Made by a program: the position numbers and the translations under genes. Positions 24,926 through 46,374 of a DNA stretch of 64,000 nt are shown piece after piece (the stretch's first letter is position 1; each line of letters begins with the position of its first letter). The notes under the pieces are model-generated. The model had not been told where the DNA came from and did not search any database. It saw only the letters and a program-made list of their open reading frames with translations. Source of the stretch: Fibrobacter sp. (GTDB lineage Bacteria; Fibrobacterota; Fibrobacteria; Fibrobacterales; Fibrobacteraceae); assembly GCA_024399015.1 (NCBI GenBank), contig JAKSIC010000002.1, positions 68,732 through 132,731 of the forward strand. Reading direction: 5' to 3'.

Positions 24926-26209
24926 TTACTTGTAAAGCGGGTGCTTCTTGCAGAGGTCGATGATTTCCTGACGGATAGCCTTCAGGCCTTCTTCGTTGTC
25001 CTTGTTCTGGATGCAACGGTCGATGATCTGAGCCACCAGGCGGGAATCGTTTTCGTCGAAGCCGCGGGTAGTGATGGCTGCGGTGCCAAGACGTACGCCG
25101 GACGGATCCATGGGCTTACGAGTGTCGAACGGAATGGTAGAACGGCTGCAGGAGATGCCAACCTTTTCCATAGCAACTTCGGCATCCTTACCACCGATGC
25201 CCTTGGAAGTCATGTCCACAACCATGAGGTGGTTGTCAGTACCGTCGGAAATGATCTTGTAGCCAAGCTTCATCAGTTCGTCGGCCATGGCCTTTGCGTT
25301 CTTGATGATGTTCTGGGCATAAGCCTGGAATTCCGGCTGGAGAGCTTCGAGGAATGCAACAGCCTTACCAGCGTTGATGTGGTCATGGGGACCACCCTGC
25401 ATACCCGGGAACAGACCTGCGTCGATTGCCTTGGGCAGGGAGACTTCCTTTTCTTCGCCCTTGACAATCTTCTTGATCATCTTGTCCTTGCACATAATGA
25501 TTGCAGAACGGGGACCGCGGAGAGTCTTATGGGTGGTGGTGGTGACGATATCGAAGTAGGGAACCGGAGATTCGATTGCCTTACCAGCGATGAGGCCAGC
25601 AACGTGAGAAATGTCTGCCATGGTGAGAGCGCCAACTTCGTCGGCGATTTCCTTGAACTTCTTCCAATCGAGGTTGCGGCTGTAAGCGGAGAAGCCAGCG
25701 AGGATCATGCGGGGCTTTTCGCGGAGAGCGATTTCACGGACCTTGTCCATGTCGATGCGGCCAGTTTCCTTATCCACTTCGTACTGGACGAAGTTGTAGA
25801 GCATGCCGGAGAAGTTCACCGGATGGCCGTGAGAAAGATGTCCACCGTGATCGAGCTTGAGGCCAAGGACCTTGTCACCCGGCTTGAGGACGCCCATGTA
25901 AACAGCAGCGTTTGCCGGAGAACCGGAAAGGGGCTGGATGTTTGCGTGGTCGCAACCAAAGAGCTGCTTGCAGCGTTCGATGGCGAGAGCTTCCATCTTG
26001 TCGATCACTTCGTTACCACCGTAGTAGCGCTTGCCAACGTAGCCTTCGCTGTACTTGTTGGTCAGCACGGAGCCCATAGCTTCCATGACGGCCTTGGAGG
26101 TGTAATTTTCGGAGGCGATCAATTCGATGCCATATTCCTGACGTTCGGCTTCTTCCTTAATGATGTCAAAGATAGCCGGATCGGTCTGCTGCAGAGTAGA
26201 TTTAAGCAT
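24926..26209 (-). CDS. glyA: Serine hydroxymethyltransferase
   Basis: LIASENY, NKYSEGY, GGHLSHG, TTTTHKTLRGPR, SGVRLGT. Confidence 0.98.
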   Translation of the reverse strand: MLKSTLQQTDPAIFDIIKEEAERQEYGIELIASENYTSKAVMEAMGSVLTNKYSEGYVGKRYYGGNEVIDKMEALAIERCKQLFGCDHANIQPLSGSPANAAVYMGVLKPGDKVLGLKLDHGGHLSHGHPVNFSGMLYNFVQYEVDKETGRIDMDKVREIALREKPRMILAGFSAYSRNLDWKKFKEIADEVGALTMADISHVAGLIAGKAIESPVPYFDIVTTTTHKTLRGPRSAIIMCKDKMIKKIVKGEEKEVSLPKAIDAGLFPGMQGGPHDHINAGKAVAFLEALQPEFQAYAQNIIKNAKAMADELMKLGYKIISDGTDNHLMVVDMTSKGIGGKDAEVAMEKVGISCSRSTIPFDTRKPMDPSGVRLGTAAITTRGFDENDSRLVAQIIDRCIQNKDNEEGLKAIRQEIIDLCKKHPLYK

Positions 26210-26307
26210 TATTAGCTCCTTGAAGTTTACGAGCGTAAAGATAGCATTTTAAGGCCGTTTTTTAAAGATTTTTGGCGAATTTAGCCCATTTTCGCCAATT
26301 CATTTTA

Positions 26308-26367: not shown

Positions 26368-27942
26368 TTACAGTTCGTAGATTTCAGAATACTTAGCTTC
26401 CAGATAATCCAGGAAATCGTCAGGAGTGAAATCGCGGCCGGTAATCTGGCGGATCCAATCCTTGGGAGCTTCACGATCAGCTCGGGCCCAGACATTTTCC
26501 TTCATCCAGCCATTAATCTTGGCAAAGTCTCCTTTGAGCACCGCGGCGGACAAATCAAATTCGGAATTCATCTTGTTATAATACATGGCGTTGTACATGT
26601 TGCCCAGGGCATAGGTGGGGAAATAGCCGAATCCGCTGGTCCAATGGACATCCTGGAGAACGCCTTCTGCATCATTGGAAGGTTCAATACCCAGATATTC
26701 CTTGTACTTTGCGTTCCAGATTTTCGGCAGGTCCGCAATGTTCACCGGTTCGCCATTTTCTGCGCCGTTCACAATCATCTTCTCGATTTCATAACGGATA
26801 ATCACGTGGAAGGTATAGGTGAATTCGTCAGCCTCGGTTCGGATAAGGCTGGGCGTTACCGTATTCATGGCCTCGTAGAATTCCTGTTCCGTCACATCGC
26901 AGAACACGTTGGGGAACAGTTCCTTGCACTTGGGGAAAATCAAGCGGATGAATTCCTTGCTGCGGCCAATGCGATTCTCATAGAAACGGCTGGTAGACTC
27001 GTGCATGCCCATGGTCTTGTTGTATTCAATAAAGTGGCTGAAGTTTTCCGCCGGCTGGTTCTGTTCGAACAAGGCGTGACCACCTTCGTGAATAATGCTG
27101 AACATGCTAGAATAGAAAGCAGTAGGATAATAATGGGTCGTTACGCGAACGTCATTCTTACCCGGTTCCGTGGTAAAGGGATGTTCCGCCGTAGAGAAAG
27201 CTCCGCGATTAAAATCAAAGCCCATCACATCAAGCAAATACTTGGCCATTTCCTTCTGGGCCTCATCGGTAACAGGGCGGCTCAGGAAATCGGTACGAAT
27301 CTTTTTCTTGCTGGCCATGATGCGCTTAAGCAGCGGAACCAAGCGTTCCTTGCAGCGATTGAAAGCCATATCAAGATCAGCACAAGTGAGCCCGCGTTCA
27401 TAGCCACCGAAAATGGTATCATACGGAGTGGCTTCACGATTTCCGTGCAGGGATTCAGCCTGAAGCTGTGCGGTACGCACCTCCCCCAGGGACTTTTCAA
27501 AAAGACCGAAGTCCTTTGCCTTTTTGGCGTTAATCCAGTTCACAAAGGCGCGGTTATAAATCTGGGAATGTTCCAACTGCATTTCTGCAGAAATGTTCTT
27601 TTCACGGGCAAAATCACGCTGAAGACTTTCCGCAAGGGCTCGGTCAAATTCTGCGGCAACCTCGGGCGATTCGCCAGAAGCAGCATCGCCGCAAACGTCT
27701 GCAGTCAATCCATCACGATGGTCATAAATATACTGGCAAGCATCAATATAAGCCTGATCCTTCTGCAAAGCAAAGGCCTTGTTGCCAAGGAAAGCCGCCA
27801 CATCACCTTCCTCTTCCATACCTGCGGAAGGGCAAATGGTTTGTTGGTCAAAACCTAAAACGGTAGAAGCCTGATTATAAATACGGACTTCCTTGAGAAC
27901 CTTTTTAACCAAGGACAAAGCTGATTTCAATTCTTCACTCAT
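26368..27942 (-). CDS. Carboxypeptidase, peptidase family M32
   Basis: HPFT, DVRVTT, IIHEGGHAL, HESTSRFYEN, LIRTEADE, GVLQDVHW, YFPTYALGN; start set at ATG 27942. Confidence 0.95.
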   Translation of the reverse strand: MSEELKSALSLVKKVLKEVRIYNQASTVLGFDQQTICPSAGMEEEGDVAAFLGNKAFALQKDQAYIDACQYIYDHRDGLTADVCGDAASGESPEVAAEFDRALAESLQRDFAREKNISAEMQLEHSQIYNRAFVNWINAKKAKDFGLFEKSLGEVRTAQLQAESLHGNREATPYDTIFGGYERGLTCADLDMAFNRCKERLVPLLKRIMASKKKIRTDFLSRPVTDEAQKEMAKYLLDVMGFDFNRGAFSTAEHPFTTEPGKNDVRVTTHYYPTAFYSSMFSIIHEGGHALFEQNQPAENFSHFIEYNKTMGMHESTSRFYENRIGRSKEFIRLIFPKCKELFPNVFCDVTEQEFYEAMNTVTPSLIRTEADEFTYTFHVIIRYEIEKMIVNGAENGEPVNIADLPKIWNAKYKEYLGIEPSNDAEGVLQDVHWTSGFGYFPTYALGNMYNAMYYNKMNSEFDLSAAVLKGDFAKINGWMKENVWARADREAPKDWIRQITGRDFTPDDFLDYLEAKYSEIYEL

Positions 27943-28006: not shown

Positions 28007-28034
28007 AAAAAGAAAGGCACGCAAAGAGCATGCC
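28007..28034 (-). terminator. Intrinsic terminator after the small membrane protein gene
   Basis: Minus strand GGCATGC-TCTTT-GCGTGCC-TTTCTTTTT. Confidence 0.65.
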
Positions 28035-28042
28035 AACTTTCG

Positions 28043-28348
28043 CTATTTCTTTTGAGAAGTTTCTGCCTTCTTTTGCTTTTCGGCTTCGTCAGCAACTTTT
28101 CCCAGCTGGGCAGCCAATTTTCTGGTTTCTTCCAGTTCATCAAAGGCACTCACCGCAGGGCCCTGGCCTTCGGCATCACTACGAGAATTGAAAAACATAG
28201 CCAGCAGGAAGAACACCAAAATGTAAAGGCCCATGGCCGCCACAACACCAAGCAATTCGGAACCGCTAATAGCAGCGGTTTTAACGTAAGCCACAATGGA
28301 CAGGGGAACTGCCAGCATCAACAAAAAAGCAGGGAGTTTTTTCTTCAT
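28043..28348 (-). CDS. Small hypothetical membrane protein (two TM helices, charged tail)
   Basis: 101 aa with two hydrophobic segments; fills the gap before a terminator. Confidence 0.7.
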   Translation of the reverse strand: MKKKLPAFLLMLAVPLSIVAYVKTAAISGSELLGVVAAMGLYILVFFLLAMFFNSRSDAEGQGPAVSAFDELEETRKLAAQLGKVADEAEKQKKAETSQKK

Positions 28349-28369: not shown

Positions 28370-30535
28370 CTAGCGGGGTCCGGCCTGCTGCTTGATTTTC
28401 CATGCAAGGGAAGCATCGGCAGCCTCAGCCTTATATTCATACTCAGGCTTGTAGCCTCTGGCTTCGCCTACAGCATCCTTGCCACCACCGGCATACCAGT
28501 TGTCTACCATCTTCACAAAGCCAACTGTGGTATCAATGGGAGCGTCGCCATCCCAAAGGCGATAGAGGGAAACAGCGTTGTCCTTATTGAAAACATTCTT
28601 CTCAATGTAGCAACGGGCTGAGTCTGTGCATTCCACACCATAATGGTCAACATCCATAAAGAAGTTGTTGTAGGCATGAAGCTTTCCTCCGCGAGCAAAC
28701 ACTCCAGATACGCTCATATTGGCAAAGTAGTTGTGATGCATTGTCAAGGTCTGATCGGTTTCCTTGAACAAATCCGGTTCAAGACCAAACAGAACACCTG
28801 TATTAGCATTTTCAAAACGAGACCAGGAAATGGTAACGTCAAAAGAGTTGCGCTTCATGTCCACTTGATAAATGGGATATTCATCAAAGGTGCAATGATC
28901 AATCCAAATTTTGTTTGTAATATTATGCAAGGAAACGGCCCTGTGCATGCTAGAATCCTTTTCATAAACAGAGGGTGCATTGAAAGTGATGTTTTCGAAA
29001 ATCACTTCTGTAGTTCCATCCGTCATGATTCCCGTTCCAGTAATCTGGACATCGCGACCGCGGCCATCAAAAGTCTTGTAAGATGTAATGCGGAGAGGAG
29101 AGCCCAAATGGTACACACCGCTCTTTTCAAACAGGATCCATGCGGCAGTATCACGCATAGCGCAGTCACGCAAGGAGCCCGGGGCAATGATTACCTTAGT
29201 GCCAATGTTACCCAAGGAATCTACAGCAGTAGAATCATCAACAACAATGTAATCTTCCATCGTTGTTACGCGGCAAATAATGCCATCTGCGCCACCGCGA
29301 ATTCCAGCAACGTAGCCTTCTGCTGAAGCAATCAAGGCGTCGTGAGCAGACCAGTCTTCGGAATAAACAGTATAGTTCTGATTCTTGGAAGCAACATTCT
29401 TCAAAGTGGATTCGTCGATGCCACCCAAAGTCACATCATCAAGGAACAATGTGTCGCCATCCACCATCTGGAAATCAATTCGACTAATCTTAATATTCTT
29501 ACCGTCGGCCTTGCCATAGGGTTTCATATCGTCTACTGCAATAGAGAAACCCTTCCACACTTTCTTCAATTCAACTTCAGTTTCGTAGCCACCTTCGGTA
29601 GAATCGCCGAAGCCGCCAAAGGATACGGCAACTCGCAAAGTTCCGTTACCGCGGGCAGAGAACATGAGTGAATCAAGTCCCGGCAGAACGTAGGCAGAAT
29701 CAGCATTACCCAAAAGGAAACCAAGACGCTTCTCAGTACGGGCGCAGCCACCAGAAGCACAGCCGTCGCTACCGGAGTACTTGCGAGTAAGAGACTTGTC
29801 CCAAAGGGGCAAAACGTTTTCGCCATCAGCATCCAGTGAGTACCACCAGCCGTCGCCAAGGAATTCGCCAGTAGAGGAAATGCCGGTGAAGCGTTCAAAG
29901 TCTTCCACCACAAAGCCGCGGACCTTGCCCAAGCTTACTTCGGGAACTTCGTCGCCAGCAGTGGCGGACAACTTAATGGTTCCGCGATTAGAAAGGCTTG
30001 CAATCTGCAAGTCGAAACTACCTGCAGGGAGCGAGTCAATCACAAAGTAGCCAGCACTATCCGGAACCACATAACGATCCAAACCAGCAATACGAATTAC
30101 AGAGGGGCCCTGACCTGCAGCAACACGGCCCTGAATCGTAGTCAGTTCACCAAGTTTCACTTCATTGGACAAATCAGTCTTGGAGTCCAGCGTTACGTAG
30201 GTAACGGCACCTTCCGCATTTTCGCCCGTCGTGTTGCGAGCTTCAATGGTATAGGATCCGTTGGAAACCTTTTCAAACTTGACTTTGCCCTTGTCATCGG
30301 AAACAGTCCATTCTGCGTCAGTCAGACCATCAGCCAAGAAGTCTTCGGACAGCATACGAACACGAGTCTTTGCTGCGGGAGAACCATCTGCCAAACGAAT
30401 CTGCAAGGCGATGGTAGATTCAGCTTCGGTACCGCCGGCAGTCTGCGGATCAGGGCTACAGCCCGTCAACCAAGCGCTAGACAGCATCCCTACGGACAAA
30501 GTCGTCAAAAGCTTAGATGAAAATTTAAACATCAT
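28370..30535 (-). CDS. Lipoprotein: carboxypeptidase-regulatory-like Ig domains + CBM11-like domain + PL1 pectate-lyase fold, apparently inactive
   Basis: Lipobox LTGC then AGGTEAES; VVEDFE...FLDDVTL jelly-roll; GSLRDC, KTFDGRG, IWIDHCTF, HAYNNFF are PL1 motifs, but RxPxxR reads SGVFAR. Confidence 0.8.
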   Translation of the reverse strand: MMFKFSSKLLTTLSVGMLSSAWLTGCSPDPQTAGGTEAESTIALQIRLADGSPAAKTRVRMLSEDFLADGLTDAEWTVSDDKGKVKFEKVSNGSYTIEARNTTGENAEGAVTYVTLDSKTDLSNEVKLGELTTIQGRVAAGQGPSVIRIAGLDRYVVPDSAGYFVIDSLPAGSFDLQIASLSNRGTIKLSATAGDEVPEVSLGKVRGFVVEDFERFTGISSTGEFLGDGWWYSLDADGENVLPLWDKSLTRKYSGSDGCASGGCARTEKRLGFLLGNADSAYVLPGLDSLMFSARGNGTLRVAVSFGGFGDSTEGGYETEVELKKVWKGFSIAVDDMKPYGKADGKNIKISRIDFQMVDGDTLFLDDVTLGGIDESTLKNVASKNQNYTVYSEDWSAHDALIASAEGYVAGIRGGADGIICRVTTMEDYIVVDDSTAVDSLGNIGTKVIIAPGSLRDCAMRDTAAWILFEKSGVYHLGSPLRITSYKTFDGRGRDVQITGTGIMTDGTTEVIFENITFNAPSVYEKDSSMHRAVSLHNITNKIWIDHCTFDEYPIYQVDMKRNSFDVTISWSRFENANTGVLFGLEPDLFKETDQTLTMHHNYFANMSVSGVFARGGKLHAYNNFFMDVDHYGVECTDSARCYIEKNVFNKDNAVSLYRLWDGDAPIDTTVGFVKMVDNWYAGGGKDAVGEARGYKPEYEYKAEAADASLAWKIKQQAGPR

Positions 30536-31445
30536 CGTCCCCTTCTACATCACCATTTTCACTAGAGGCATTCTCGATTGTTTCCATTCCGCGGATACGG
30601 CGTTTGCGGCCGCGTCGCTGCGGAGGAGGATAAGGATCAGACAGAGGGAACAACTGCATTCCCAGCTGGAAAACTCGATTGGGTTTCTGGCACTGTCCTA
30701 CCTTAGCCAAAATTTCACGACGGAAACGGCGGACCATTTCCACCAATTCCTTATATGTATCTTCGTCACAGCCAAATGCAAGCGTAGACAAGTTGCGTTC
30801 TTCACGACTGAAACGGTCCATGGCATCTTGAGCCACGGTCAAATTCTGCTGGATGTAAGAATTCACAGCGGTGCTGTAGGATTCACTTCCGCTGGAAATC
30901 AAGCCCTGAGTCTGTTCGTAAAAACCGGTCTGCTCATTCTTCTTGATCATAGAAAGACGTTCAAGAAGTGCGATAGAGGATTTCACCTGGCTTGCAGAAA
31001 TAGGCGGACGCACCATCAAACCGAGGGCAGCATCGTCACCCACATAAGGATAAAAAGTGACCAGTTCACGAATGACCGCATGGTACCAGTTGTCGAAATA
31101 TTCAAACTGGTCCTTGGCCACATCTTCAACCTTGCATTCCTTGGTAGCAACAAGCTTTTCAAGGAACTGACGGCTTTCAGAATGGTTCTTTGCCTGGTTG
31201 AAAGCAACCATGTCGGCAAAGTATTTCTTTTCACGTTCATCCTTACAGAAAATATCAGCAAAAACAGAAACCAGACGAGAAGTCAGGTTACGCTTACCCT
31301 GCAAGATTTTATTGAACATGGAAGCATCGAAGCCAGCCTTTTCAGCAATAAAGCGGTGGCTAAAACGCCAGTCACCGGCATGACGTTCTTCGTATGCGTC
31401 CTTCAAAAAATCGCGGTAATTCAAATATTCAAAAAGATTGATCAT
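30525..31445 (-). CDS. TIGR02147 family protein (N-terminal HTH, DUF4423-like C-terminus)
   Basis: NLFEYLNYRDFLKD, FSHRFIAEKAG, ILQGKRNL, YFDNWYHAVIREL, VFQLGMQLFPLS; 11-bp overlap with the lipoprotein gene. Confidence 0.92.
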   Translation of the reverse strand: MINLFEYLNYRDFLKDAYEERHAGDWRFSHRFIAEKAGFDASMFNKILQGKRNLTSRLVSVFADIFCKDEREKKYFADMVAFNQAKNHSESRQFLEKLVATKECKVEDVAKDQFEYFDNWYHAVIRELVTFYPYVGDDAALGLMVRPPISASQVKSSIALLERLSMIKKNEQTGFYEQTQGLISSGSESYSTAVNSYIQQNLTVAQDAMDRFSREERNLSTLAFGCDEDTYKELVEMVRRFRREILAKVGQCQKPNRVFQLGMQLFPLSDPYPPPQRRGRKRRIRGMETIENASSENGDVEGDDDV

Positions 31446-31451
31446 GGAAAC

Positions 31452-31528
31452 GTAGACTTTTTATTTTGTTTTTCCATCATTTAATATAACAAAAAGTCTA
31501 CACTTTGAGCAAATTTTTGTCCACACTC
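31452..31528 (-). promoter_or_regulatory. Promoter/operator region of the TIGR02147 gene
   Basis: -10 TATATT (31483-31488, minus) bracketed by a perfect 11-bp inverted repeat GTAGACTTTTT (31452-31462) / AAAAAGTCTAC (31491-31501); extra GTCCACACTC 31519-31528. Confidence 0.65.
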
Positions 31529-31559
31529 TGTGTAAGATGTGTGTTTAGTCATACAACAG

Positions 31560-31584
31560 AAAAAGGCCCGGCAAAAGCCGGACC
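31560..31584 (-). terminator. Intrinsic terminator after the CE12 gene
   Basis: Minus strand GGTCCGGC-TTTT-GCCGGGCC-TTTTT. Confidence 0.7.
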
Positions 31585-31606
31585 CTCTTCGATGGAAAAA
31601 GTTGTT

Positions 31607-33364
31607 TTACTTTGTTTTGAAATACTTGCCGGGAGCCATCTTGCGACCAGAAACGGTACGGCCCAGAAGGTTCACGGTACGGTTCTGATTCAAGAGCACC
31701 GAACGAGAATCCATTCTCTTTCCGATAGATTCCGTGGAGGAACTGGAACTAGCCGGTTCCACCACAGGTTCCGCGCCGATACGGTAAACGTCCTTGATGT
31801 CAAAGCCAACCACGTCAATATTGGGGCCACCGTCAGAAGTCAACGAGGTAAACTTCAAGTCAAAATCACAGGCATCCAGCCAGACATCATCCACATAAAC
31901 GGTATCCCATGTATCCCAGGAACCGCTAGGCTTAAATTCCACTTCGTAGGTCTTGGCATCCACCTGCACGCTCATCTTGCTTGTCGTTGTCTTACCGTTG
32001 CAGTAGCGAATGAACATACGCGCATTAGATGCGGACTGGTAGGATGTCATCTTGTAAGTACCATAGGAGCTTACGGAATTATCAAAATTGAAGAAACCCT
32101 TTCCTACAAAACCCAAATGGTTGGATTCAGTCCATCCCGCAGGACCAAACTCATCAGGATAGGACATATCGCTTACGCTGGGCCAAGCGTCCGTTCCCTT
32201 AAGAATTTCAAACTTGACGACTTCGCTGATGCTGGAAGAAGATGCGGGAGTTTCGCTGGAACTGGAACCTGCAACGGGAACGTTTTCGCTTCCGTGATTT
32301 GTAGTCACGCACTGGGCACCACCTTCAAACATCGCAGTATAGGTAATATCGCGGTAAGGCATTTTCACCTTGTAGTAGTTGGAATCCGCAGTCACCTTCT
32401 TGCAGTCATCATCGGCCCAATACTGGAAACGCTTACCAAAACTACCCGGAGAAACATGAAGATTCAAAGCAGCGCCACCCGGCAAATTCTGATTGTGGGT
32501 AATAAGGCCACTTCCAGCAACATTGGCCTTTACCGTCAGTTTATACGTGGGAGCAATAGCGCCAACCAATGTGGTCAAGGCAGCCTTTTCAGAAGAATTC
32601 ACGCTGGAATTATTCAGATTTTCACGAAGGCCTTCCGTAATCAACTGGGCATGAACCACAGAACCAGATTCCTGGAAATGGGTTGTACCGTCGTTTGTTA
32701 CACCACCTGCATAGTTGGGATATTCACCCGGCAGGAACATCTTGAAAATGTAGCGGGAAATATAGGCAGAGCTGATCTGCTTATACAAGTTATAGGTCTT
32801 GGTAGTCAAGTCAATAAACGGGACACCGTTCTTCTTTGCAACACTTGCAATCACATCCTTCACAGGGTATTCCTTGCCCTTATGGGATGCATCGGTCATG
32901 TTGTTATCAAACACGTTACGAGGATAAGTGTTCAACATCAACGGGCTCATCAAAACAATGTGAGCATTCTTTCTCTTGGCTCCATCCACATATTTCTGGA
33001 ACCAATATTCACTAGAATCAATGGGAACATAGCGATCAGCCTTGGAATAGTCTCGGTCATTGGTTCCCAACTGAACAAAGATGTAATCCCCCGGCTGGGT
33101 AGCATTCAGAACTGCATCCAAGCGGCCATCATTCACAAAGGACTTGGAGCTACGGCCACCAATGGCGTAGTTAATCACCTTCACTCGAGACTGATCAAAG
33201 AAAGGTGCAATCACCTGGCCCCAACCAGTTTGAGGATAAGCACTTTCCTTGTAATCGCAAACGGTGGAGTCACCAATCACATGGATCGTGAAAGAAGTAG
33301 TATCGCTAACGGCAACGCTGGTGAACAAGGCAGCGACAGCAAAATATTTCAGAATAGTTTTCAT
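31607..33364 (-). CDS. Rhamnogalacturonan acetylesterase (CE12, SGNH) + linker + CBM35 + short basic tail
   Basis: VIGDSTV, GWGQV, NYAIGGRSSKSF, QLGTND, THF; CBM35 GFVGKGFFNFDN..GGPNIDVV; start set at ATG 33364 after GGAG. Confidence 0.88.
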   Translation of the reverse strand: MKTILKYFAVAALFTSVAVSDTTSFTIHVIGDSTVCDYKESAYPQTGWGQVIAPFFDQSRVKVINYAIGGRSSKSFVNDGRLDAVLNATQPGDYIFVQLGTNDRDYSKADRYVPIDSSEYWFQKYVDGAKRKNAHIVLMSPLMLNTYPRNVFDNNMTDASHKGKEYPVKDVIASVAKKNGVPFIDLTTKTYNLYKQISSAYISRYIFKMFLPGEYPNYAGGVTNDGTTHFQESGSVVHAQLITEGLRENLNNSSVNSSEKAALTTLVGAIAPTYKLTVKANVAGSGLITHNQNLPGGAALNLHVSPGSFGKRFQYWADDDCKKVTADSNYYKVKMPYRDITYTAMFEGGAQCVTTNHGSENVPVAGSSSSETPASSSSISEVVKFEILKGTDAWPSVSDMSYPDEFGPAGWTESNHLGFVGKGFFNFDNSVSSYGTYKMTSYQSASNARMFIRYCNGKTTTSKMSVQVDAKTYEVEFKPSGSWDTWDTVYVDDVWLDACDFDLKFTSLTSDGGPNIDVVGFDIKDVYRIGAEPVVEPASSSSSTESIGKRMDSRSVLLNQNRTVNLLGRTVSGRKMAPGKYFKTK

Positions 33365-33374
33365 TACTCCTACC

Positions 33375-35261
33375 CTACTTTGTCTTTGCAATCTTCTGAT
33401 GCATCACCTTGGAACCCTTGCGGATTACAACATGATAAAGTCCAGAAGTCTTCACCATTTCATTCAATTCTACAGAAGAAATACGATCACCCACAACCAT
33501 TTCACGTTTTGCCACAAGCTTACCGCGCATATCAAACACGCTCACGGAAGCATTGCTCAAAGTATTCAAATAAAGATTTCTGTTGTGAATGGCCTGAAGA
33601 TTAGCGATAGAATCCAAAGAATCCTTTTCTGCCTTTTCTTTTGCGATAACGGCATTAACGCAGGCGGTATCGCTTGCTCGGCAAACATCATCAATGCTGA
33701 AGCCGAAGACGTCAATATTGGGAGCACCGTCACTGGTGAGAGACATAAACTTCAAATCAGCTTCACCAAGAGGAGCATCCATAACAACGTAAGCGGTGTC
33801 CCACTTGTCCCAGCCACCGGTGGGAGGAGCGCTTACATAGTAATCGTGATCCAAGTAGGCATTGAACATACGGTCGGTAGTTCCGCCATTTGCATAGCGA
33901 ACTGCCAAAGTGGTATAGCCCGCACCAGGGAAGTTCACCTTATACGTTGCAAAAGACTTATTCGAATTGTCAAAATTATAGAAACCTTCACCTGTAAATC
34001 CAGCGTTATTGCTTTCGGTCCAACCAACGCCCTGATCATCGGGTTTAGCAGCATCAAAGAATTTCTTGATATCCTTGTCAACGGCAACAGAAGTTTCCGT
34101 TGTGCCGCCAATGGGGGTAAAGGGTTCAAAGGTAACATCGGCGAGGCTCTTAGGAGTGGTAGTAGGGAAAGCAGTTAATGCCTTGCCATCACCAGTGTAC
34201 TTTTGAGCGGTACCACCTTCATAAACAGCGGTATACTGCGTAGACTTATTACCCATCTTAAAGGTGTAAATGTACGGAGACTTCACCGTAGAAATTGCGT
34301 TGCCGGAAACCTTATTTCCGTTACCGTCATACCAGCCCAGGAATTTCTTTCCACTCTTGGGAATGGTCTTCAGCATTACGGTCATGCCTTCGGGATAGTA
34401 GGCTCCGATAGAAGTTGCTTCTGCAGCACCTTCGGGAGAAACCTTTACATCCACCTGGTACATGGGAGCCATGTAGTCACCCAATTTCTTGACCATGGGG
34501 TCCTTATGGGCACGCATCTGTTCCGTAATGATTCGGCCAAAGGCGTTTGCACCATTCATCTGCAGATGAACCTGGTCAGCCTGGTCACTGCCCAGGTTAC
34601 TGTATTCATCCCTGGTGGCATAGTTAAAGATAAACTGAGCGGCATACCGTTCACCCACAGAAATCATGTAGTTAGCCACCATTTCACTCATGTCAATAAA
34701 CGGAACATTCAATTCTTCGGACAACTTTTGGTTCAAGGCAGGATAACCACGATAACTATTATGGATTGCGGTCGGAGAATCGTAGTAGAGACGGCGAATA
34801 GGGCTCATAATGATGGGATAGGCGCCCTTAGCCTTGGCTTCTGCCACCAGCTTTCTCATGTTGGAAGCAAAGAAATCCTCGGTACTGTAGCTAACGTCGT
34901 TAATACCAAATTGGATCACCACATAGTCGCCAGCCTGAACCTTATCAGCAATACAATTGCTGCCGGAAGTACAGCCATGTTTCCAGAACATGTCGTAGTA
35001 ACCCACAGCAGTATTTCCCTTCTTGTCGAGGCCACCACCACCAAGGGACATACCGCCCTGACCGCGATTTACAACGACAGCCTTATTGAACCAGAAATGG
35101 AAATCCTGGCCCTGGCCCTGCTTAGGGTAATAACCGGAGGCCCAGTCCTGCATGGTGGAATCACCAAGCATGTAGATGGTTACTCCTGCGTAGGTAGCCG
35201 GAGCCACAAGCAAAGATCCTGCGACAACGCCCTGCCAAATTTTGCTAAACAATTTGTTCAT
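33375..35261 (-). CDS. CE12-like SGNH esterase + CBM35 + C-terminal sorting domain
   Basis: MLGDSTM, QFGIND, DQVHL; CBM35 GFTGEGFYNFDN..VRYANGG..DGAPNIDVF; start set at ATG 35261. Confidence 0.88.
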   Translation of the reverse strand: MNKLFSKIWQGVVAGSLLVAPATYAGVTIYMLGDSTMQDWASGYYPKQGQGQDFHFWFNKAVVVNRGQGGMSLGGGGLDKKGNTAVGYYDMFWKHGCTSGSNCIADKVQAGDYVVIQFGINDVSYSTEDFFASNMRKLVAEAKAKGAYPIIMSPIRRLYYDSPTAIHNSYRGYPALNQKLSEELNVPFIDMSEMVANYMISVGERYAAQFIFNYATRDEYSNLGSDQADQVHLQMNGANAFGRIITEQMRAHKDPMVKKLGDYMAPMYQVDVKVSPEGAAEATSIGAYYPEGMTVMLKTIPKSGKKFLGWYDGNGNKVSGNAISTVKSPYIYTFKMGNKSTQYTAVYEGGTAQKYTGDGKALTAFPTTTPKSLADVTFEPFTPIGGTTETSVAVDKDIKKFFDAAKPDDQGVGWTESNNAGFTGEGFYNFDNSNKSFATYKVNFPGAGYTTLAVRYANGGTTDRMFNAYLDHDYYVSAPPTGGWDKWDTAYVVMDAPLGEADLKFMSLTSDGAPNIDVFGFSIDDVCRASDTACVNAVIAKEKAEKDSLDSIANLQAIHNRNLYLNTLSNASVSVFDMRGKLVAKREMVVGDRISSVELNEMVKTSGLYHVVIRKGSKVMHQKIAKTK

Positions 35262-35283
35262 ACCCAAAGACTCCAACCCTTTT

Positions 35284-37908
35284 TTACTTTACAGCAAACA
35301 CACTCTTCGCAACTGCCAAACCGTTGACCTTAACAACCACAATGTACTGGCCCTTAGTAAGCATTTCGCGATCAATACGAACGTCGTTCAAGCCTGCAGC
35401 CACATTCTTGTAAATACTACCCACAATATGGCCACGCACGTCATAAACCAAAACTTCAGCATCGCCACTCATGTTCGTGCGAAGAACACCAGTCACCGGA
35501 TTGTAAGAGTTCGTTCCGAGAACAACCGGAGCAAGAATTGCCTGGGTAGGAACCTTCTGGTCAGCAAAGATTTCAACACCGTCCATGGCGAAAGTAAAAT
35601 GGTCCACATTGGGGCCGCCATCGGAAGTCATGGAAGTAAGTTTGATTGTATTCTTGCCAGCCTTCAAGGCAATATCCACAGTAACTTCCTTATAAGTGGT
35701 CCAGCCAGTTGCAGCAAATTCAACAACACCCGCAGACTTTCCGTTCACAGAGAGAGCCATATTACGGTTTGCCGTACCACCGTTAGCAAAGCGGATAGTC
35801 AAAGTTGTCTTTGCATCGCTGGGAGAGAAGATTTCCCATACACCGTAACTGGAAATAGAATTTGCAAAATTGAAGAAACCATCCTGTTCGAAGCCCGCAT
35901 TATCGGTCTGGCATACAAAGCCATCAAATTCTACAGGCTTACAAATTTCCAAGGAAGACTTACCGTCCTTAACGACAGGATAATCTTCTGTTTCATCAGG
36001 AACAGACACGATAGGCTCGCCCACCACCTGAATTTCAGGTTGCTTCAAGTTCTTGACCATATCTGGCAGGTAGTAACCGAGGTGCGGCGGCTGGTTGTAG
36101 GCAGTGTTCTGCCAGGCGATTGCAGTGCGGTAAACCGGATCGTGCATCAGGGTGTATACGCGATGAGGAGAGGTCACCGGAGTAGACACAATGAACAAGG
36201 TGGTAGGATCGCCATCCTTACGGAGCACCATTTCTTCGCGCCAGTCGCCGAAGAGGTCAGCCACCAGGGACGGGGTATTCTTGGTGCCGTTGCAGCCGGC
36301 AGCCTTCAAAGCGACAGGACCATCGAAATAGACATTCGACTGCTTTGCTGCGGGATCGTACTTGGACACATAACCGCCATCCAGCAGTTCGTCGTATGCA
36401 TCGCCATCGAAGTAGATACGGAAATTCATGGCCAAGGCGGGAGTTCCAAGGAATTCACCCTTGATGGAGTGAAGTCCACCACCCTTGGAAGACCAGAATT
36501 CATAGCCGCGGTGAGTGGAGTCGATATCGGCAGCAATACCACGGCCGTTATCCTTACCACCCTGAGGGCTACAGTAAAGAATCTTTCCGTCCTTATCACG
36601 AAGATCATCGGTACATTCTGCGTTAGTATGTTCCTGAACTCCGAAGAATTCAAGGCCCGGACGATCCGGATCCAGGTCGCCCAAGTGGCCAGCGTCACCA
36701 TGGCCAAGGCCAGTGCGGTAGCGCAAGGTACCATCGTGATTCAGGGATGCAGCACCAAAGACAATTTCATCGTAGCCGTCGCCATCGATATCGCCGGTAG
36801 TAATGTTGTGGTTACCTTCTTCGTAAAGGCCCTGGCCCGGATTTTCAGACTTATGGAACCAACGCTGCTTTAGAGTGGTTCCGTCAAAGTCGTAGGCCAC
36901 AACGTATGAGGAAGAGTAATAACCGCGGATAAAGATTGCACTGGGATGCACACCATCAAGATAAGCGGTTGCAGCAATGTAACGTTCAGAACGGTTACCG
37001 TAGTTATCGCCCCAGTAGCCAGCTCCATTCTTGCCCTTTTCGGACTTCAGGATATTACGGGGAGGAACAAAGTCGATTGTCGTAATGGCAGAACCGTCTA
37101 CACCGCGGAAAACAGTCAGGAATTCGTTTCCGGTAAGAACTAAGCCGTTGCCATCGCGATAAACCTTGGACTTGTCGCCAATGGCCTTGCCCTTGCCGTC
37201 GATAGAACCATCGGAAGTCTTCACAATCATTTCAGCCTTGCCGTCGCCATCGTAGTCAAAGACCTGGAACTGGGTGTAATGAGCGCCCGCACGGATGTTC
37301 GGGCCAAGGTCAATGCGCCACAGACGGGTACCATCCAGCTTATAGGCGTCAATAAACACGGTGCCCGTATAGCCGGTCTGGGAGTTATCGTGGGCGTTGG
37401 AAGGATCCCACTTCAGGATAATTTCGTATTCGCCGTCACCATCCAGGTCGGCAGCGCTTGCGTCGTTAGGAGTGTAAGTGCAAACTTCGCCATCGGGCAT
37501 GGTCTGATTTGCAGGAGGCTGCAGCTTGATAGTCTTGAAAGGAACTGAACGACCCGTATTTTCGACAGTCTGGTCCAAAACCACGGAAACACCTGATTTT
37601 GAGCCTTCCTTACCGTCTACAACGGCGGCAATTTCATACTTGGAGGACACCTTGCCAGACTTGTCCAAGAAATTTGTACCTTCAGAACCCTTGATAGATG
37701 CAACTTTGGAACCGTCGCGATAAAGATTGAATTCGGTAGCGGGGTCATCTGTACCCAGCAGACGCCAGCTTACCAAAACACCAGAACCCACGTTGGACGC
37801 CACCAGACCGCGAGTCAAGTTTTCCATCTGTTTCGGAGCAGCATTCGCTGCGGAGCTCACACCCAAAATTGTTGCACCAGCCAAAAGAATCTTAAGATAC
37901 TGTTTCAT
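35284..37908 (-). CDS. Rhamnogalacturonan lyase (PL11, YesW-like) + CBM35 + C-terminal sorting domain
   Basis: QMENLTRGLVA, VSWRLLGTD, YTPNDASAADLDGDGEYE, NIRAGAHYTQF, HGDAGH, ADLFGDWREE, YNQPPH. Confidence 0.93.
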   Translation of the reverse strand: MKQYLKILLAGATILGVSSAANAAPKQMENLTRGLVASNVGSGVLVSWRLLGTDDPATEFNLYRDGSKVASIKGSEGTNFLDKSGKVSSKYEIAAVVDGKEGSKSGVSVVLDQTVENTGRSVPFKTIKLQPPANQTMPDGEVCTYTPNDASAADLDGDGEYEIILKWDPSNAHDNSQTGYTGTVFIDAYKLDGTRLWRIDLGPNIRAGAHYTQFQVFDYDGDGKAEMIVKTSDGSIDGKGKAIGDKSKVYRDGNGLVLTGNEFLTVFRGVDGSAITTIDFVPPRNILKSEKGKNGAGYWGDNYGNRSERYIAATAYLDGVHPSAIFIRGYYSSSYVVAYDFDGTTLKQRWFHKSENPGQGLYEEGNHNITTGDIDGDGYDEIVFGAASLNHDGTLRYRTGLGHGDAGHLGDLDPDRPGLEFFGVQEHTNAECTDDLRDKDGKILYCSPQGGKDNGRGIAADIDSTHRGYEFWSSKGGGLHSIKGEFLGTPALAMNFRIYFDGDAYDELLDGGYVSKYDPAAKQSNVYFDGPVALKAAGCNGTKNTPSLVADLFGDWREEMVLRKDGDPTTLFIVSTPVTSPHRVYTLMHDPVYRTAIAWQNTAYNQPPHLGYYLPDMVKNLKQPEIQVVGEPIVSVPDETEDYPVVKDGKSSLEICKPVEFDGFVCQTDNAGFEQDGFFNFANSISSYGVWEIFSPSDAKTTLTIRFANGGTANRNMALSVNGKSAGVVEFAATGWTTYKEVTVDIALKAGKNTIKLTSMTSDGGPNVDHFTFAMDGVEIFADQKVPTQAILAPVVLGTNSYNPVTGVLRTNMSGDAEVLVYDVRGHIVGSIYKNVAAGLNDVRIDREMLTKGQYIVVVKVNGLAVAKSVFAVK

Positions 37909-37929
37909 AAGAACACTCCTACATCAACT

Positions 37930-37962
37930 GTAGACAAATATATCCAAATAATGTCCACACTT
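37930..37962 (-). promoter_or_regulatory. Promoter/operator of the PL11-CE12-CE12 operon
   Basis: -10 TATATT (37937-37942, minus) between GTAGAC (37930-37935) and GTCCACACTT (37953-37962). Confidence 0.55.
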
Positions 37963-38080: not shown

Positions 38081-41062
38081 TTATCGGTTGGACACCTTTG
38101 CTTTGGAAATCATGCGTCCGTTGAACTTAACTTTCACGAAATAAACGCCCTTGGGAAGCATTTCGCCATCAGCCTTCAGCAAGGTTTCGCCCGCGGGAAC
38201 ATCAGCACTCATGCCATATTTCATGGTGCCGCTCATATCGTAGTAGTAAACTTCTGCGAAGCCACTTTCTGAGGTTCGAATCACGCCAGAGACTGGGTTA
38301 TAGCCGACGATTCCGCGGACATTCACTACATTCTGCACAGCAGCAGGATTTTCAGGATTTTCGTCCTCGAACTTCACCTTGCCAGATTCATAATCGCGAT
38401 AGAGGCAGATGTCCGCCTGATCGAAATAGAACAAGTCGACATTCGGGCCACCCAAGGCAGAAACCGCAGTAAGCTTCAAGGTATTCTTACCTTCTACAAG
38501 TTTCACCTTCACCTCAGTTTCCATCCAGTTGGTCCAGCCATCGGTAGAAGCAAATTCCACTTCACGGACATCAACCCCATTAATGGACAGCATCATGTTA
38601 CGAGGATCTGCGCCACCGTTTGCAAAGCGGACGGTCACAGTCACTTCGCCAGCCTTCTTGGAATAAAGTTCCCAAACGCCATAGCTGCCAACTGCATTAT
38701 CAGAATTGAAGTAACCGCTATCCAGCCAGCCGGCATTGTATTCTTCATAAACGCCCAGCATTTCATCAGGAATGGCGGCGTTCACTTCGGAAGGATAGTT
38801 GGTAGAAATCGTGGGCTTACCGCCTTCGCTGCTAGAAGATTCTTCCGGCACAAAGCTGCTAGAGGATTGGGGAATCGAGGGGTCGGTCACCACGATCTGG
38901 CCAGAAAGGGAGGCAGCATCACCGGTGCCGCCAACGGTTGTTGCGGTAAAGGCAAAAGTACCGATTTCAGTAGGAGTACCGGAGATGTAAATCTTCTTGT
39001 CAGAGGTATTCAAAGTTGCAGTCACACCCTTGGGAAGGCCTTCCACCTTCACGCCGGTGCAGTTGGCATATGCGTACGCGAAGTCCAAAATGGCGGTACC
39101 CAAAGCAACGGTCTGACGGCTGGAACCGGCACCATTCTTGGTAATAGTTGCAGCAGGCATCACCACTTCGCCAGAACTTGCAACAGTATAAATTTCCGGC
39201 TGCTTCAAGCTTTTCACCATATCCGGCAAGTAGTAGCTCACGTGAGGCGGCTGGTTGTAAGCCACATTCTGCCAAGCCACGCTAACACGGTACTGAGAAT
39301 CGTGAAGCAAAGTATACAGGCGGAAGTTGGTCTTTACGGGAGTAGAGAAAATGGTCAGCAGAGAAGGGTCTGTGCTGGAACGGGCAATGAATTCTTCGCG
39401 CCAGTCGCCGAACAGATCCGCAGAAATGCAGGGATTAGCCTTGGTGGAATTGTTCAAGGTAGAACTATTCACGTTGTAGAAGCTGAAATAGCGATCGATG
39501 GTCTTGGCGGAAGAGTTCCACTTTTCGATCTTACCACCGCTGCCGTTAGAGCCCGTGTTGTCCAAAAGTTCATCCTGCAGGTCGCCGTCAAAGTAAATGC
39601 GGAAGTTCACGGAAGGCTTCTTGTCGGAAAGCAGAGCACCCTTTACAGTGCGGATTCCACCGCTGGTTCCAGACCACATTTCAAAACCGCGGTTGGTGGA
39701 ATCGATATCCGCCGCAAGGCCACGGCCATTATCTACACCGTCGCCCACCTGTTCAGTTCCCCAGATGACCTTACCATCGGGGCCGCGGAATTCTTCGGAA
39801 TACTTGTTCTTCTTTTCTTCGTGAACATCGTAAACTTCAAGACCAGCACGGTCCGGATCCATGTCGGAAAGATGCATGGCGTCGCCGTGACCAAATCCGG
39901 TGCGGTACAGCAAAGTGCCGTCGGACTTGAGGGCTGCAGAACCAAAGACAATTTCATCCTTGCCATCACCGTTAATGTCACCAACAGACAGGTTATGGTT
40001 ACCTTCGCCATAAAGGCCCTGGCCAGAGGTGGTTGCAGAATACTGCCAACGGTTCACCAATTTTCCATCCTTAAAGTCGTAGGCGGCCACAAAAGCCTGG
40101 GTGTAATAACCGCGGCACATAATCAAACTGGGGTGTTCGCCATCCAGGTAAGCAATGGCTGCCAGCATACGGTTATCGCGGTTACCGTAATTGTCGCCGG
40201 TAATCTTACCACGGGCAGGCCAATAGTTAATAGTGTTAATTTCTGCACCGGTAGTGCCATTGAAAACGGTCAGGTATTCGTTACCGCTCATGATGGTACC
40301 GGTGGAAGTGCGATAGTCCTTGGAAGCGTCGCCGATGACCTTACCCTTGCCATCTACAGTGCCGTCGCTAGTCTTTACTGCGATTTCTGCAATGCCGTCG
40401 CCATCAAGGTCGTAGACCATGAACTGGGTGTAATGGGCACCAGCGCGAATGTTTCGACCCAAGTCAATACGCCACATCTTGCGACCATCGAACTTATAGG
40501 CGTCCAAGTAAACGTTGCCGGTGTAACCGGACTGAGAGTTATCCTTGGAATTGTTAGGATCCCACTTCAGTACAAATTCCAGTTCGCCGTCACCATCCAG
40601 ATCACCCACGCTCATGTCGTTAGGGGTGTAACTGCAAGTGGTGCCGTCGGGTGTTTTCACGCCCTTAGGAACATCTACAGAAATGGTTGCATAGGGGAAG
40701 CTGAGACTGCCGGACTTGTAAGTCTTGTCATAAACAAAAGAAAGACCCTGGGCCTCGCCTTCTGCACCAGCCACAACAGGAGCCACAGTGTACTTAGAAG
40801 TTGTCTTGCCGGTAGCGTCCAGATAGTTGGTTGCCTGCGTTCCACTGATGGTGGCGATTTTTGCACCATCGCGATAAAGATTGAATTCCGTATTAGGCTT
40901 TTCTGTACCCAGAAGGCGCCAGCTGACAAGCATTCCGCCGCCAACGTTTGCAGCGACAAGGCCTCGGCTCAAATTTTCCATTTGACGAGCCGCATTTGCC
41001 TGAACGGTCAAACCAAGGCCCAAACCAAAAGCCACAACGGCTTTCACTAATCCATATCCCAT
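38081..41062 (-). CDS. Rhamnogalacturonan lyase (PL11) + Ig-like domain + CBM35 + C-terminal sorting domain
   Basis: RQMENLSRG, YTPNDMSVGDLDGDG, GHGDAMH, ADLFGDWREE, YNQPPH; insert GLPKGVTA..ISGTPT; start set at ATG 41062 after GGAG. Confidence 0.93.
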   Translation of the reverse strand: MGYGLVKAVVAFGLGLGLTVQANAARQMENLSRGLVAANVGGGMLVSWRLLGTEKPNTEFNLYRDGAKIATISGTQATNYLDATGKTTSKYTVAPVVAGAEGEAQGLSFVYDKTYKSGSLSFPYATISVDVPKGVKTPDGTTCSYTPNDMSVGDLDGDGELEFVLKWDPNNSKDNSQSGYTGNVYLDAYKFDGRKMWRIDLGRNIRAGAHYTQFMVYDLDGDGIAEIAVKTSDGTVDGKGKVIGDASKDYRTSTGTIMSGNEYLTVFNGTTGAEINTINYWPARGKITGDNYGNRDNRMLAAIAYLDGEHPSLIMCRGYYTQAFVAAYDFKDGKLVNRWQYSATTSGQGLYGEGNHNLSVGDINGDGKDEIVFGSAALKSDGTLLYRTGFGHGDAMHLSDMDPDRAGLEVYDVHEEKKNKYSEEFRGPDGKVIWGTEQVGDGVDNGRGLAADIDSTNRGFEMWSGTSGGIRTVKGALLSDKKPSVNFRIYFDGDLQDELLDNTGSNGSGGKIEKWNSSAKTIDRYFSFYNVNSSTLNNSTKANPCISADLFGDWREEFIARSSTDPSLLTIFSTPVKTNFRLYTLLHDSQYRVSVAWQNVAYNQPPHVSYYLPDMVKSLKQPEIYTVASSGEVVMPAATITKNGAGSSRQTVALGTAILDFAYAYANCTGVKVEGLPKGVTATLNTSDKKIYISGTPTEIGTFAFTATTVGGTGDAASLSGQIVVTDPSIPQSSSSFVPEESSSSEGGKPTISTNYPSEVNAAIPDEMLGVYEEYNAGWLDSGYFNSDNAVGSYGVWELYSKKAGEVTVTVRFANGGADPRNMMLSINGVDVREVEFASTDGWTNWMETEVKVKLVEGKNTLKLTAVSALGGPNVDLFYFDQADICLYRDYESGKVKFEDENPENPAAVQNVVNVRGIVGYNPVSGVIRTSESGFAEVYYYDMSGTMKYGMSADVPAGETLLKADGEMLPKGVYFVKVKFNGRMISKAKVSNR

Positions 41063-41197
41063 AACACACTCCATTCGGGCATAGCCCTTATGTTTTACAC
41101 CAAGAAGAAAACTAATCTAAAAAGGTTCCTACATCCACACCCTTCCCGATTTTACCGTAGTCCAGGGACTACGGACACCCATTTTCTTCTAATTTGG

Positions 41198-41236
41198 AAT
41201 ATACATACTTTTTATATAAAAGTCAACACTTTTGAG
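41198..41236 (-). promoter_or_regulatory. sigma70 promoter of the upstream PL11 gene with overlapping operator-like motif
   Basis: Minus strand TTGACT (41221-41226), 17 bp, TATATT (41198-41203); AAAAGTCAACACTTTTGAG 41218-41236 nearly equals AAAAAGTCTACACTTTGAG 31491-31509. Confidence 0.7.
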
Positions 41237-41385
41237 TTATTTTACAAAATTTTTAATTTTCAATTACAATTCACAAAATAAAAAGTCCACATTTCAAATA
41301 AAAATCCTCATTTTTTCATTTTTTAAGATACCAGGTTCACTCACCCGTCGTAGAACCACGCTTTTTTACTACATTTTGGCCCGTT

Positions 41386-46320: not shown

Positions 46321-46374
46321 AGGGTCCTCAAACCTCCCGTTTTTCAAGATTTGCTCTACGAACAAATTAAAAAA

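Follow-up and report, generated by a model that had tools for sequence, protein, structure and literature searches.

The question raised by the 64,000 nucleotide stretch of Fibrobacter sp. contig JAKSIC010000002.1 analysed here (the window) is why a putative transcription factor gene should be coupled to the gene of a lyase-like lipoprotein beside a cluster for rhamnogalacturonan I (RG-I) degradation. The minus-strand gene order is PL11b, PL11a, CE12, CE12, TIGR02147, lipoprotein, where TIGR02147 denotes a family of putative helix-turn-helix (HTH) regulators and the lipoprotein carries a domain resembling the pectate lyases of polysaccharide lyase family 1 (PL1) (Table 1). Our best overall explanation, to which we give a probability of roughly one half, is that an autoregulated transcription factor runs the PL11/CE12 cluster and is made together with a non-catalytic, pectin-binding lipoprotein. 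The last two open reading frames (ORFs) overlap by 11 bp, as a preliminary description of this DNA had noted; the lipoprotein ORF begins with two consecutive ATG codons, and use of the second gives an 8 bp overlap like that of most orthologues.

In this explanation the pair is one copy of a two-gene module present throughout the phylum. The TIGR02147 protein, soluble, cytoplasmic and equipped with two domains of DNA-binding type, would bind short TGT(G/A)GAC boxes before its own gene and before both PL11 genes, and so would autoregulate and control three units: PL11b, PL11a-CE12-CE12 and TIGR02147-lipoprotein. The lipoprotein gene is translationally coupled to that of the regulator, and its product is a lipid-anchored envelope protein in which two immunoglobulin (Ig)-like spacers and, here, a CBM11-like domain hold out a PL1-derived beta-helix. 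This helix keeps a strictly conserved basic surface at its former active centre (R532, D559, K561, R562 and H537) and would bind pectic polysaccharide without cutting it, like the surface glycan-binding lipoproteins of Bacteroidota.

The PL1-like domain and its former active site

The lipoprotein matches the PL1 family PF00544 over residues 483-649 (E 7.6e-20, 71.9 bits against a cutoff of 24). Its AlphaFold2 (AF2) model (pLDDT 88.5, pTM 0.78, residues 1-37 disordered) matched 26 PL1 entries in a Foldseek search, with VexL and PL1 lyases on top. VexL is the best solved relative in both sequence (E 1.7e-25) and fold (E 8e-15). Relatives of the lipoprotein all come from Fibrobacter, and the closest named one, from Fibrobacter sp. 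UWEL, is 70% identical.

The PL1 catalytic Arg acts as the Brønsted base (R279 of Bacillus subtilis Pel [BsPel], R218 of PelC, R232 of VexL), a conserved Lys lies by the active centre (BsPel K247, VexL K195), and the Ca2+ ligands are three acidic residues (BsPel D184, D223 and D227). We compared the active site through HMMER alignments to five solved PL1 proteins, VexL (6fi2), 3vmv, 7xks, 3zsc and Jun a 1, rather than residue by residue on BsPel. All five align without gaps over HHNYFANMSVSGVFARGG, and this places S610 at the catalytic Arg, V612 at the conserved Pro and R615 at the second Arg (the BsPel R284 position); the conserved Lys is replaced by T579 in all five alignments, and the WIDH motif is intact. 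The preliminary description had listed these same losses of Arg, Pro and Lys together with the intact WIDH, and on these points it is upheld. Its further statement that two of the three Ca-binding Asp residues are replaced stands in substance: the Asp of the DAI motif is R532 (relative to Jun a 1 and 7xks), the first Asp of DGxxD is I555 in the gapless alignments to VexL and Jun a 1, and the last Asp is kept as D559. In detail it is less certain, as the gapped 3vmv alignment puts Q557 rather than I555 at the DGxxD Asp; 81% of homologues have Glu at position 557, where the window protein has Gln.

Among 121 homologues position 610 is occupied by ten residue types (S46, D29, R20, V8, K5, A4, N4, H3 and others), so the loss of the catalytic residue is a property of the family as a whole. 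Position 579 is Thr, Ser or His and never Lys. The loop 606-616 is the least constrained part of the conserved block (mean entropy 1.77 bits against 1.10 for the domain), and this variability, with that of position 610, indicates that the canonical base is not under selection. By contrast R532, H537, D559, K561, R562 and H600 are invariant, position 615 is Arg or His in 118 of the 121, and a strictly conserved, basic surface surrounds the former Ca site. The lipoprotein thus has the fold and family signature of PL1 and lacks the catalytic Arg, the Lys and the set of three Ca ligands, although VexL, which is metal-independent, does not need the last of these. The canonical PL1 machinery has almost certainly been lost. 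Since three defining catalytic features fail, the protein should carry no pectate lyase annotation until there is an assay, and the domain is probably truly non-catalytic and serves as a pectin-binding module.

VexL itself offers the alternative that the domain is an active lyase of non-canonical type, metal-independent, with R532 in place of Ca2+ and another base such as the Arg or His at 615, cutting pectic or some other uronate polymer. Such cutting would take place at the cell envelope, with the TIGR02147 protein simply a local regulator; we think this reading improbable. The nearness of VexL, the invariant charged residues at the former active centre, the restriction of position 615, the Arg present at 610 in 20 of the 121 homologues and the public annotation of relatives as PL1 proteins all favour it. 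On the other hand, the VexL substitutions K195A, R232A/K, R235A and R172A all gave inactive enzyme (PMC6003464), and the residues that correspond in the lipoprotein to VexL R232, K195, R235 and R172 are S610, T579, F613 and Y556, so that all four essential residues are replaced. The block varies most in just that loop where all characterised PL1 proteins carry the base, and the partners in paralogous modules (below) are overwhelmingly non-enzymatic folds. An active lyase nevertheless stays a serious rival to the binding module, because a conserved groove cannot separate binding from catalysis.

The other parts of the lipoprotein differ in how strongly they are kept. The CBM11-like domain has an occupancy of 0 over residues 201-360 in 19 short homologues; it is an accessory, because these orthologues of about 560 amino acids lack exactly that domain. 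The peptide A33-GGTEAEST-I-A43, just after the lipobox, is 100% conserved in the family of the window protein, against 56-72% for the rest of the protein. The third codon positions of GGTEAEST vary freely in 35 orthologues, which shows that selection acts on the peptide and rules out a DNA or RNA element at this place.

The two-gene module across Fibrobacterota

The module was surveyed in 80 genome loci fetched with the TIGR02147 profile and in eight more from encoding-contig look-ups (loci with L numbers below). A PL1-like lipoprotein with the peptide motif is encoded just downstream of the TIGR02147 gene in 36 of 36 evaluable orthologous loci, one further orthologous locus being cut short. 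Paralogous TIGR02147 genes behave alike: about 43 of 50 evaluable ones are followed by a gene for a motif lipoprotein, four have a variant motif and three have no motif. The module genes mostly overlap by 4 or 8 bp, and the paralogous modules come from Fibrobacteria, Chitinivibrionales, Chitinispirillaceae and a few metagenome-assembled genomes labelled as other phyla. The pairing seen in the window is hence no local accident; it belongs to a two-gene module conserved across Fibrobacterota.

The mature N-termini of the paralogous partners follow the pattern C-x(2-10)-GG(T/S)E(T/A), with AGATTETTNG, GGGSEAVA, GGGIETV and GGTETGS as examples, and GG[TS]E[TA]x[NS]-type variants lie just downstream of the lipobox Cys in the partner lipoproteins of loci L038-L085. 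Three additional motif lipoproteins in the surveyed loci each stand behind a second TIGR02147 gene, and no motif lipoprotein was found away from TIGR02147 genes in the approximately 0.9 Mb of fetched DNA. A role of the motif as a general lipoprotein sorting signal finds no place in that sample.

What follows the peptide varies. Among 41 partners in paralogous modules, CarboxypepD_reg is present in 25 and Laminin_G_3 with DUF2341 in 18, and PKD, Reg_prop, Kelch and one beta-helix also occur; judged by these family assignments their C-termini are binding folds, mostly lectin-like, rather than enzymes. The preliminary description had called for such a survey of TIGR02147 neighbours, expecting lipoproteins with AGGTE-type N-termini and degenerate carbohydrate-active enzyme (CAZyme) or binding domains matched to nearby clusters. 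The N-termini and the mostly non-catalytic, lectin-like domains are as expected; a match to nearby substrates is not supported as a general rule, since the neighbours of paralogous modules are heterogeneous and only about 10 of 65 are CAZymes.

Four distant modules do adjoin PL11 or CE12 genes: L058 1084-3195 (-), L063 1828-4050 (-), L074 8633-11533 (+) and L064 4341-5621 (-). Their partners are not PL1-like, three of them having Laminin_G_3/DUF2341, which hints that such modules may have been recruited independently to RG-I loci.

Two modules also occur in tandem or near each other, with differing upstream palindromes, in L069 (6001-11272), in L077 (527-2964 and 6001-8489) and, on both strands, in L038.

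The TIGR02147 protein and candidate operators of the PL11/CE12 cluster

The regulator matches NCBIfam TIGR02147 over model positions 1-270 of 272 (353 bits against a cutoff of 50, E 1e-105) and Pfam DUF4423 (96 bits against 30, E 2e-27). It is predicted to be cytoplasmic and has no membrane segment. Its AF2 model (pLDDT 79) starts with a helical domain, which we read as an XRE-type HTH (residues ~25-85), continues with a unit like a winged helix (~140-185) and ends in long helices. In Foldseek searches the N-terminus resembled XRE/HigA HTH domains and the middle part the winged helices of MarR, CapW and BrxR, all at E 0.1-1, and a PDB sequence search with the protein found nothing; from the model, DNA binding is plausible. 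At E <= 1e-10 the family comprises 12,695 clusters (at 50% identity), and no functional study of TIGR02147, DUF4423 or the Fibrobacter succinogenes S85 genes Fisuc_2480 and Fisuc_2481 was found in the literature searched.

In an alignment of the intergenic regions upstream of orthologous TIGR02147 genes, the only conserved blocks are two direct TGT(G/A)GAC boxes 23-24 nt apart, a TTTTTG and a TTATATT; a (C)TATATT recurs upstream of paralogous modules. The window contains 22 boxes where 10.8 are expected, a number that none of 100 shuffles reached. Over six loci, 18 of 53 boxes lie within cluster promoters that make up 1.6% of the sequence (binomial P 1e-19, a value inflated by the kinship of the loci). 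The cluster promoters of the window, those of PL11a and PL11b as well as that of the module, all carry boxes. PL11 genes of L088 and L001 are likewise preceded by the arrangement TGTGGAC-N20-GTCTACA, and a pair of direct boxes precedes the first PL11 gene in L086. A scan for sigma-70 promoters and terminators gave overall counts at chance level, and only individual sites from it are used here.

Two groups of loci separate the module from the cluster promoters in opposite ways. L009 and L012 have the module without PL11/CE12 neighbours, and the boxes are kept. In the L086/L002/L017/L034 lineage the pair begins 7-10 nt after a CE12 gene, without boxes between them. The fetched sequence reaches the upstream end of the operon in L086, and there the boxes stand at the first promoter. 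Upstream of paralogous modules other inverted repeats occupy a similar place: TGGACA-N4-TGTCCA (in eight loci), GTGTTCA..TGAACAC, GGTGAA..TTCACC, GTGTTGCAT..ATGCAACAC and CCGTTTAC..GTAAACGG. Perfect arms of at least 7 are found in 42% of these upstream regions and in 12% of shuffled ones. Each group has its own HTH recognition helices, as it has its own palindromes, and this co-variation fits binding by TIGR02147 proteins; it is not decisive, because the groups are also clades. We favour the view that the TIGR02147 protein binds the TGT(G/A)GAC boxes, and we hold it slightly probable that it controls the PL11/CE12 units.

In L086, L002-L004, L017 and L034 the cluster and the pair look like a single operon in which the pair has no promoter of its own, and the lipoprotein of this lineage is the short form, which lacks the CBM11-like domain. 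In L020, L021, L025, L028, L029 and L033 the leader from the boxes to the start codon is taken up by heptamer-like repeats in tandem (such as CTAACCA and CTAATCA); they do not occur in the window.

The pair might instead be linked by co-transcription alone, with the TIGR02147 protein acting in something other than transcription of the cluster, while the boxes belong to another regulator or to the promoter. The overlap of one box variant with a -35-like hexamer, the heterogeneous neighbours of paralogous modules and the lack of a significant fold match for the TIGR02147 protein (best E 0.1) can be cited for this. We consider it very improbable in view of the boxes that stay with the module where the cluster is absent (L009, L012) and shift to the operon promoter where the pair is fused to the cluster, of the differing palindromes that paralogues have in the same place, and of the other promoters in the 64 kb window, which have no box.

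A regulatory link to the adjacent cluster, claimed in the preliminary description, thus gains support from the boxes at all three promoters and from synteny, the order PL11-CE12-CE12-TIGR02147-lipoprotein being kept in 30 of 32 species-representative loci. Within the window, the terminator-like hairpin at the end of the CE12 genes divides the CE12 operon from the TIGR02147-lipoprotein unit. Metatranscriptome depth dips at this hairpin, and one metatranscriptome contig crosses the TIGR02147/lipoprotein junction; such contigs show that the pair is transcribed and are too coarse to delimit transcription units. In F. succinogenes S85 all five cluster genes are up on cellulose relative to glucose (PMC4668043 S1 Table). 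Expressed as reads per kilobase per million (RPKM), the values on cellulose and glucose, respectively, are 101 and 13 for Fisuc_2477 (PL11), 31 and 12 for Fisuc_2478 (CE12), 23 and 6 for Fisuc_2479 (CE12) and 106 and 45 for Fisuc_2480 (hypothetical protein) (PMC4668043 S1 Table). The three S85 enzymes were detected in the extracellular medium, and Fisuc_2480 and Fisuc_2481 are missing from the proteome table (PMC4668043).

In a third account, put forward in the preliminary description, the pair would be an envelope-to-DNA signalling device: the lipoprotein would bind pectin and alter the co-translated TIGR02147 protein, which would turn on PL11/CE12. The regulator-first order and translational coupling resemble those of sigma/anti-sigma and other sensor-regulator pairs, the pairing is near-obligate over about 85 loci, and the N-terminal peptide of the lipoprotein is invariant and specific to the module. 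The regulator orthologues are far more conserved (82-95% identical) than their lipoprotein partners (45-91%), both S85 transcripts are present in non-inducing conditions, and the presence of the enzymes but of neither TIGR02147 protein nor lipoprotein in the S85 proteome table points to a low apparent abundance. Against this, the TIGR02147 protein is without a membrane segment, and a cleavable signal peptide is all that the lipoprotein has, which places the mature proteins in separate compartments. When 65 neighbours of paralogous modules were scanned with Pfam and compared all against all by BLAST, no conserved third gene able to bridge the membrane was found. Nor was a histidine kinase or anti-sigma gene found at the cluster in the window; a hybrid kinase adjoins the cluster in L001 and L005 only. 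Obligate pairing would also be produced if a regulator and its target gene duplicate as a unit. Signalling of this kind is in our estimation unlikely.

An autoregulated factor that controls the cluster, made with a binding lipoprotein, remains the reading we prefer, and several observations weigh against it. The 20 homologues with Arg at 610 are one, and the strict conservation of the groove fits a rewired active site equally well, VexL being a PL1 enzyme that works without metal. Surface exposure of the lipoprotein is an assumption. Another factor might bind the boxes, or they might be part of a promoter; one copy overlaps a -35-like TTGAC, and the box statistics overstate independence because the orthologous loci are related. 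A whole-protein Foldseek search with the TIGR02147 model gave no significant match (best E 0.1). Finally, Fisuc_2480 is the TIGR02147 orthologue by gene order only, and the S85 cluster responds to cellulose versus glucose, with pectin absent.

Comparison with known systems, and other features of the window

VexL, the Vi-antigen lyase of Achromobacter (6fi2, PMC6003464), shares with the lipoprotein a PL1 beta-helix without the Ca-ligand Asp of the DAI motif, by which the two stand apart from Ca-dependent PL1 proteins. It differs in keeping R232, K195, R235 and R172, where the lipoprotein has S610, T579, F613 and Y556, and in being a single-domain periplasmic enzyme rather than a multi-domain lipoprotein. 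Beta-helix adhesins and allergens with a pectate-lyase-like fold, for example the Candida glabrata Awp adhesins (PMC8746771), are a precedent for a right-handed, PL-like beta-helix that binds rather than catalyses; they belong to unrelated organisms, are anchored in other ways and have no regulator partner.

In domain architecture, and not by homology, the lipoprotein appears analogous to the surface glycan-binding proteins (SGBPs) of Bacteroidota of SusE/SusF type, which also have a lipid anchor, Ig-like spacers, a distal non-catalytic domain and a place in an enzyme cluster for one polysaccharide. The lipobox, the Ig-like domains, the CBM11-like domain, the PL1-like domain without catalytic residues and the synteny with PL11/CE12 genes are all present, and the protein would lie at the cell surface. 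The differences are that SusC/SusD-like genes were not found in the window's cluster, that the binding domain is lyase-derived, that the gene is coupled to that of a regulator and that the product carries the GGTE peptide.

Regulator partnership recalls other systems. Clostridial SigI/RsgI pairs also join a non-catalytic, CAZyme- or CBM-like extracytoplasmic domain to a CAZyme regulator and occur as multiple paralogous pairs per genome. RsgI, however, spans the membrane and binds a sigma factor, whereas the partner here is a lipoprotein that has only a lipoprotein signal peptide and lacks a cytoplasmic domain, and its regulator, of HTH type, is not a sigma factor, so the pair does not belong to that class. 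The enterobacterial outer-membrane lipoproteins RcsF and NlpE report envelope or surface events to cytoplasmic regulators, and RcsF relies on its N-terminal linker to do so. Their signals pass by way of known inner-membrane proteins and of phosphorelays whose genes lie elsewhere; the resemblance would be one of analogy, and nothing comparable was identified here.

Fibrobacter is a main fibre degrader of the rumen and hindgut and has many CAZyme genes. The S85 genome paper reported few recognisable regulators near CAZyme genes (PMC3079729). Because the same pairing recurs across the phylum, the TIGR02147 family may supply missing local regulators of fibre degradation; the family now has a function that can be tested, with an operator and a regulon predicted for it and, as obligate partner, a lipoprotein that bears a peptide signature. 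A PL1 lyase fold has apparently been converted to a binding module. Three items appear undescribed in the literature searched: a soluble HTH protein obligatorily coupled to a motif lipoprotein, the GGTE signature and the predicted operators. It is conceivable, though we rate it as doubtful, that TIGR02147 proteins and GGTE lipoproteins form an unrecognised and widespread class of envelope-to-DNA signalling (~12,700 clusters at 50% identity). In that case each lectin-like lipoprotein would sense a different extracellular polymer or surface and would control its own soluble transcription factor through the invariant N-terminal peptide and some route across the inner membrane, and such pairs would provide the substrate sensing that CAZyme regulation in Fibrobacterota has so far seemed to lack.

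Table 1. Coordinates of the lipoprotein-regulator pair, its sites and the neighbouring cluster in the 64,000 nucleotide window
Feature	Position	Strand	Remarks
Lipoprotein gene	28370-30535	-	721 aa; signal peptide/lipobox, GGTE peptide, two Ig-like domains, CBM11-like sandwich, PL1-like beta-helix
Signal peptide with lipobox LTGC (Cys26)	30458-30535	-	read from sequence; Cys26 invariant in 74 homologues
Peptide A33-GGTEAEST-I-A43	30407-30439	-	invariant; signature of lipoproteins downstream of TIGR02147 genes
Two Ig-like (CarboxypepD_reg-type) domains, residues ~42-192	29960-30412	-	weak Pfam matches; beta-sandwich strands in model
CBM11-like beta-sandwich, residues ~196-372	29420-29950	-	matches CBM11 and related CBMs (Foldseek 6r31, 1v0a, 2c26)
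PL1-like right-handed beta-helix, residues ~416-721	28373-29290	-	PF00544; VexL by sequence and fold
Former catalytic loop N606-G616 (NMSVSGVFARG)	28688-28720	-	S610 replaces catalytic Arg
TIGR02147/DUF4423 gene	30525-31445	-	306 aa; ORF and family matches
Two direct TGT(G/A)GAC boxes, 23 nt apart	31519-31525 and 31496-31502	-	upstream of TIGR02147 gene; candidate operator
TTATATT, -10-like, fixed distance from box 2	31483-31489	-	orthologue alignment
Inverted half-box GTCTAC, 7 nt before ATG	31452-31457	-	also in L006, L007, L011
TGTGGAC and inverted GTCTACA	37953-37959 and 37929-37935	-	upstream of PL11a
TGTGGAC and variant TGTTGAC	41285-41291 and 41222-41228	-	upstream of PL11b; variant overlaps TTGACT-17-TATATT promoter-like site
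Two CE12-like GDSL esterase genes	31607-33391 and 33375-35276	-	Pfam Lipase_GDSL_2, CBM6-like, PaeY-like matches
Two PL11 rhamnogalacturonan lyase genes	35284-37908 (PL11a) and 38081-41074 (PL11b)	-	RGL11_C E 4e-191 and 2e-209
Small ORF, 101 aa, two predicted transmembrane helices, charged C-terminal tail	28043-28348	-	directly after lipoprotein gene
Terminator-like hairpin after 101-aa ORF	28016-28034	-	
Terminator-like hairpin	31559-31590	-	14-bp stem then T run, after CE12 gene

The 101 amino acid ORF that follows the lipoprotein gene is possibly a third gene of its transcription unit. With homologues behind the lipoprotein gene in just 11 of 37 orthologous loci, it is lineage-specific and not part of the core module. 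No other TIGR02147 paralogue was found in the window and no second regulator gene at its cluster, the flanks of which encode BrkB-like and UvrA-like proteins, an M32 peptidase and serine hydroxymethyltransferase. The PL11 and CE12 proteins have weak to passing matches to the C-terminal sorting domain of type IX secretion (TIGR04183; 26.8 bits against a cutoff of 23 for CE12b), which suggests that these enzymes may be exported by a type IX-like route, unlike the PL1-like lipoprotein. Long plus-strand ORFs antisense to genes of the region (24941-26215, 26644-27858, 31505-33604, 35242-36873 and 38867-41050) are shadow ORFs and have no family matches. About 4 kb past the cluster, at 45460-46365 on the minus strand, lies a gene for a Fib_succ_major (PF09603) protein, a member of another lipoprotein family that is expanded in Fibrobacter.

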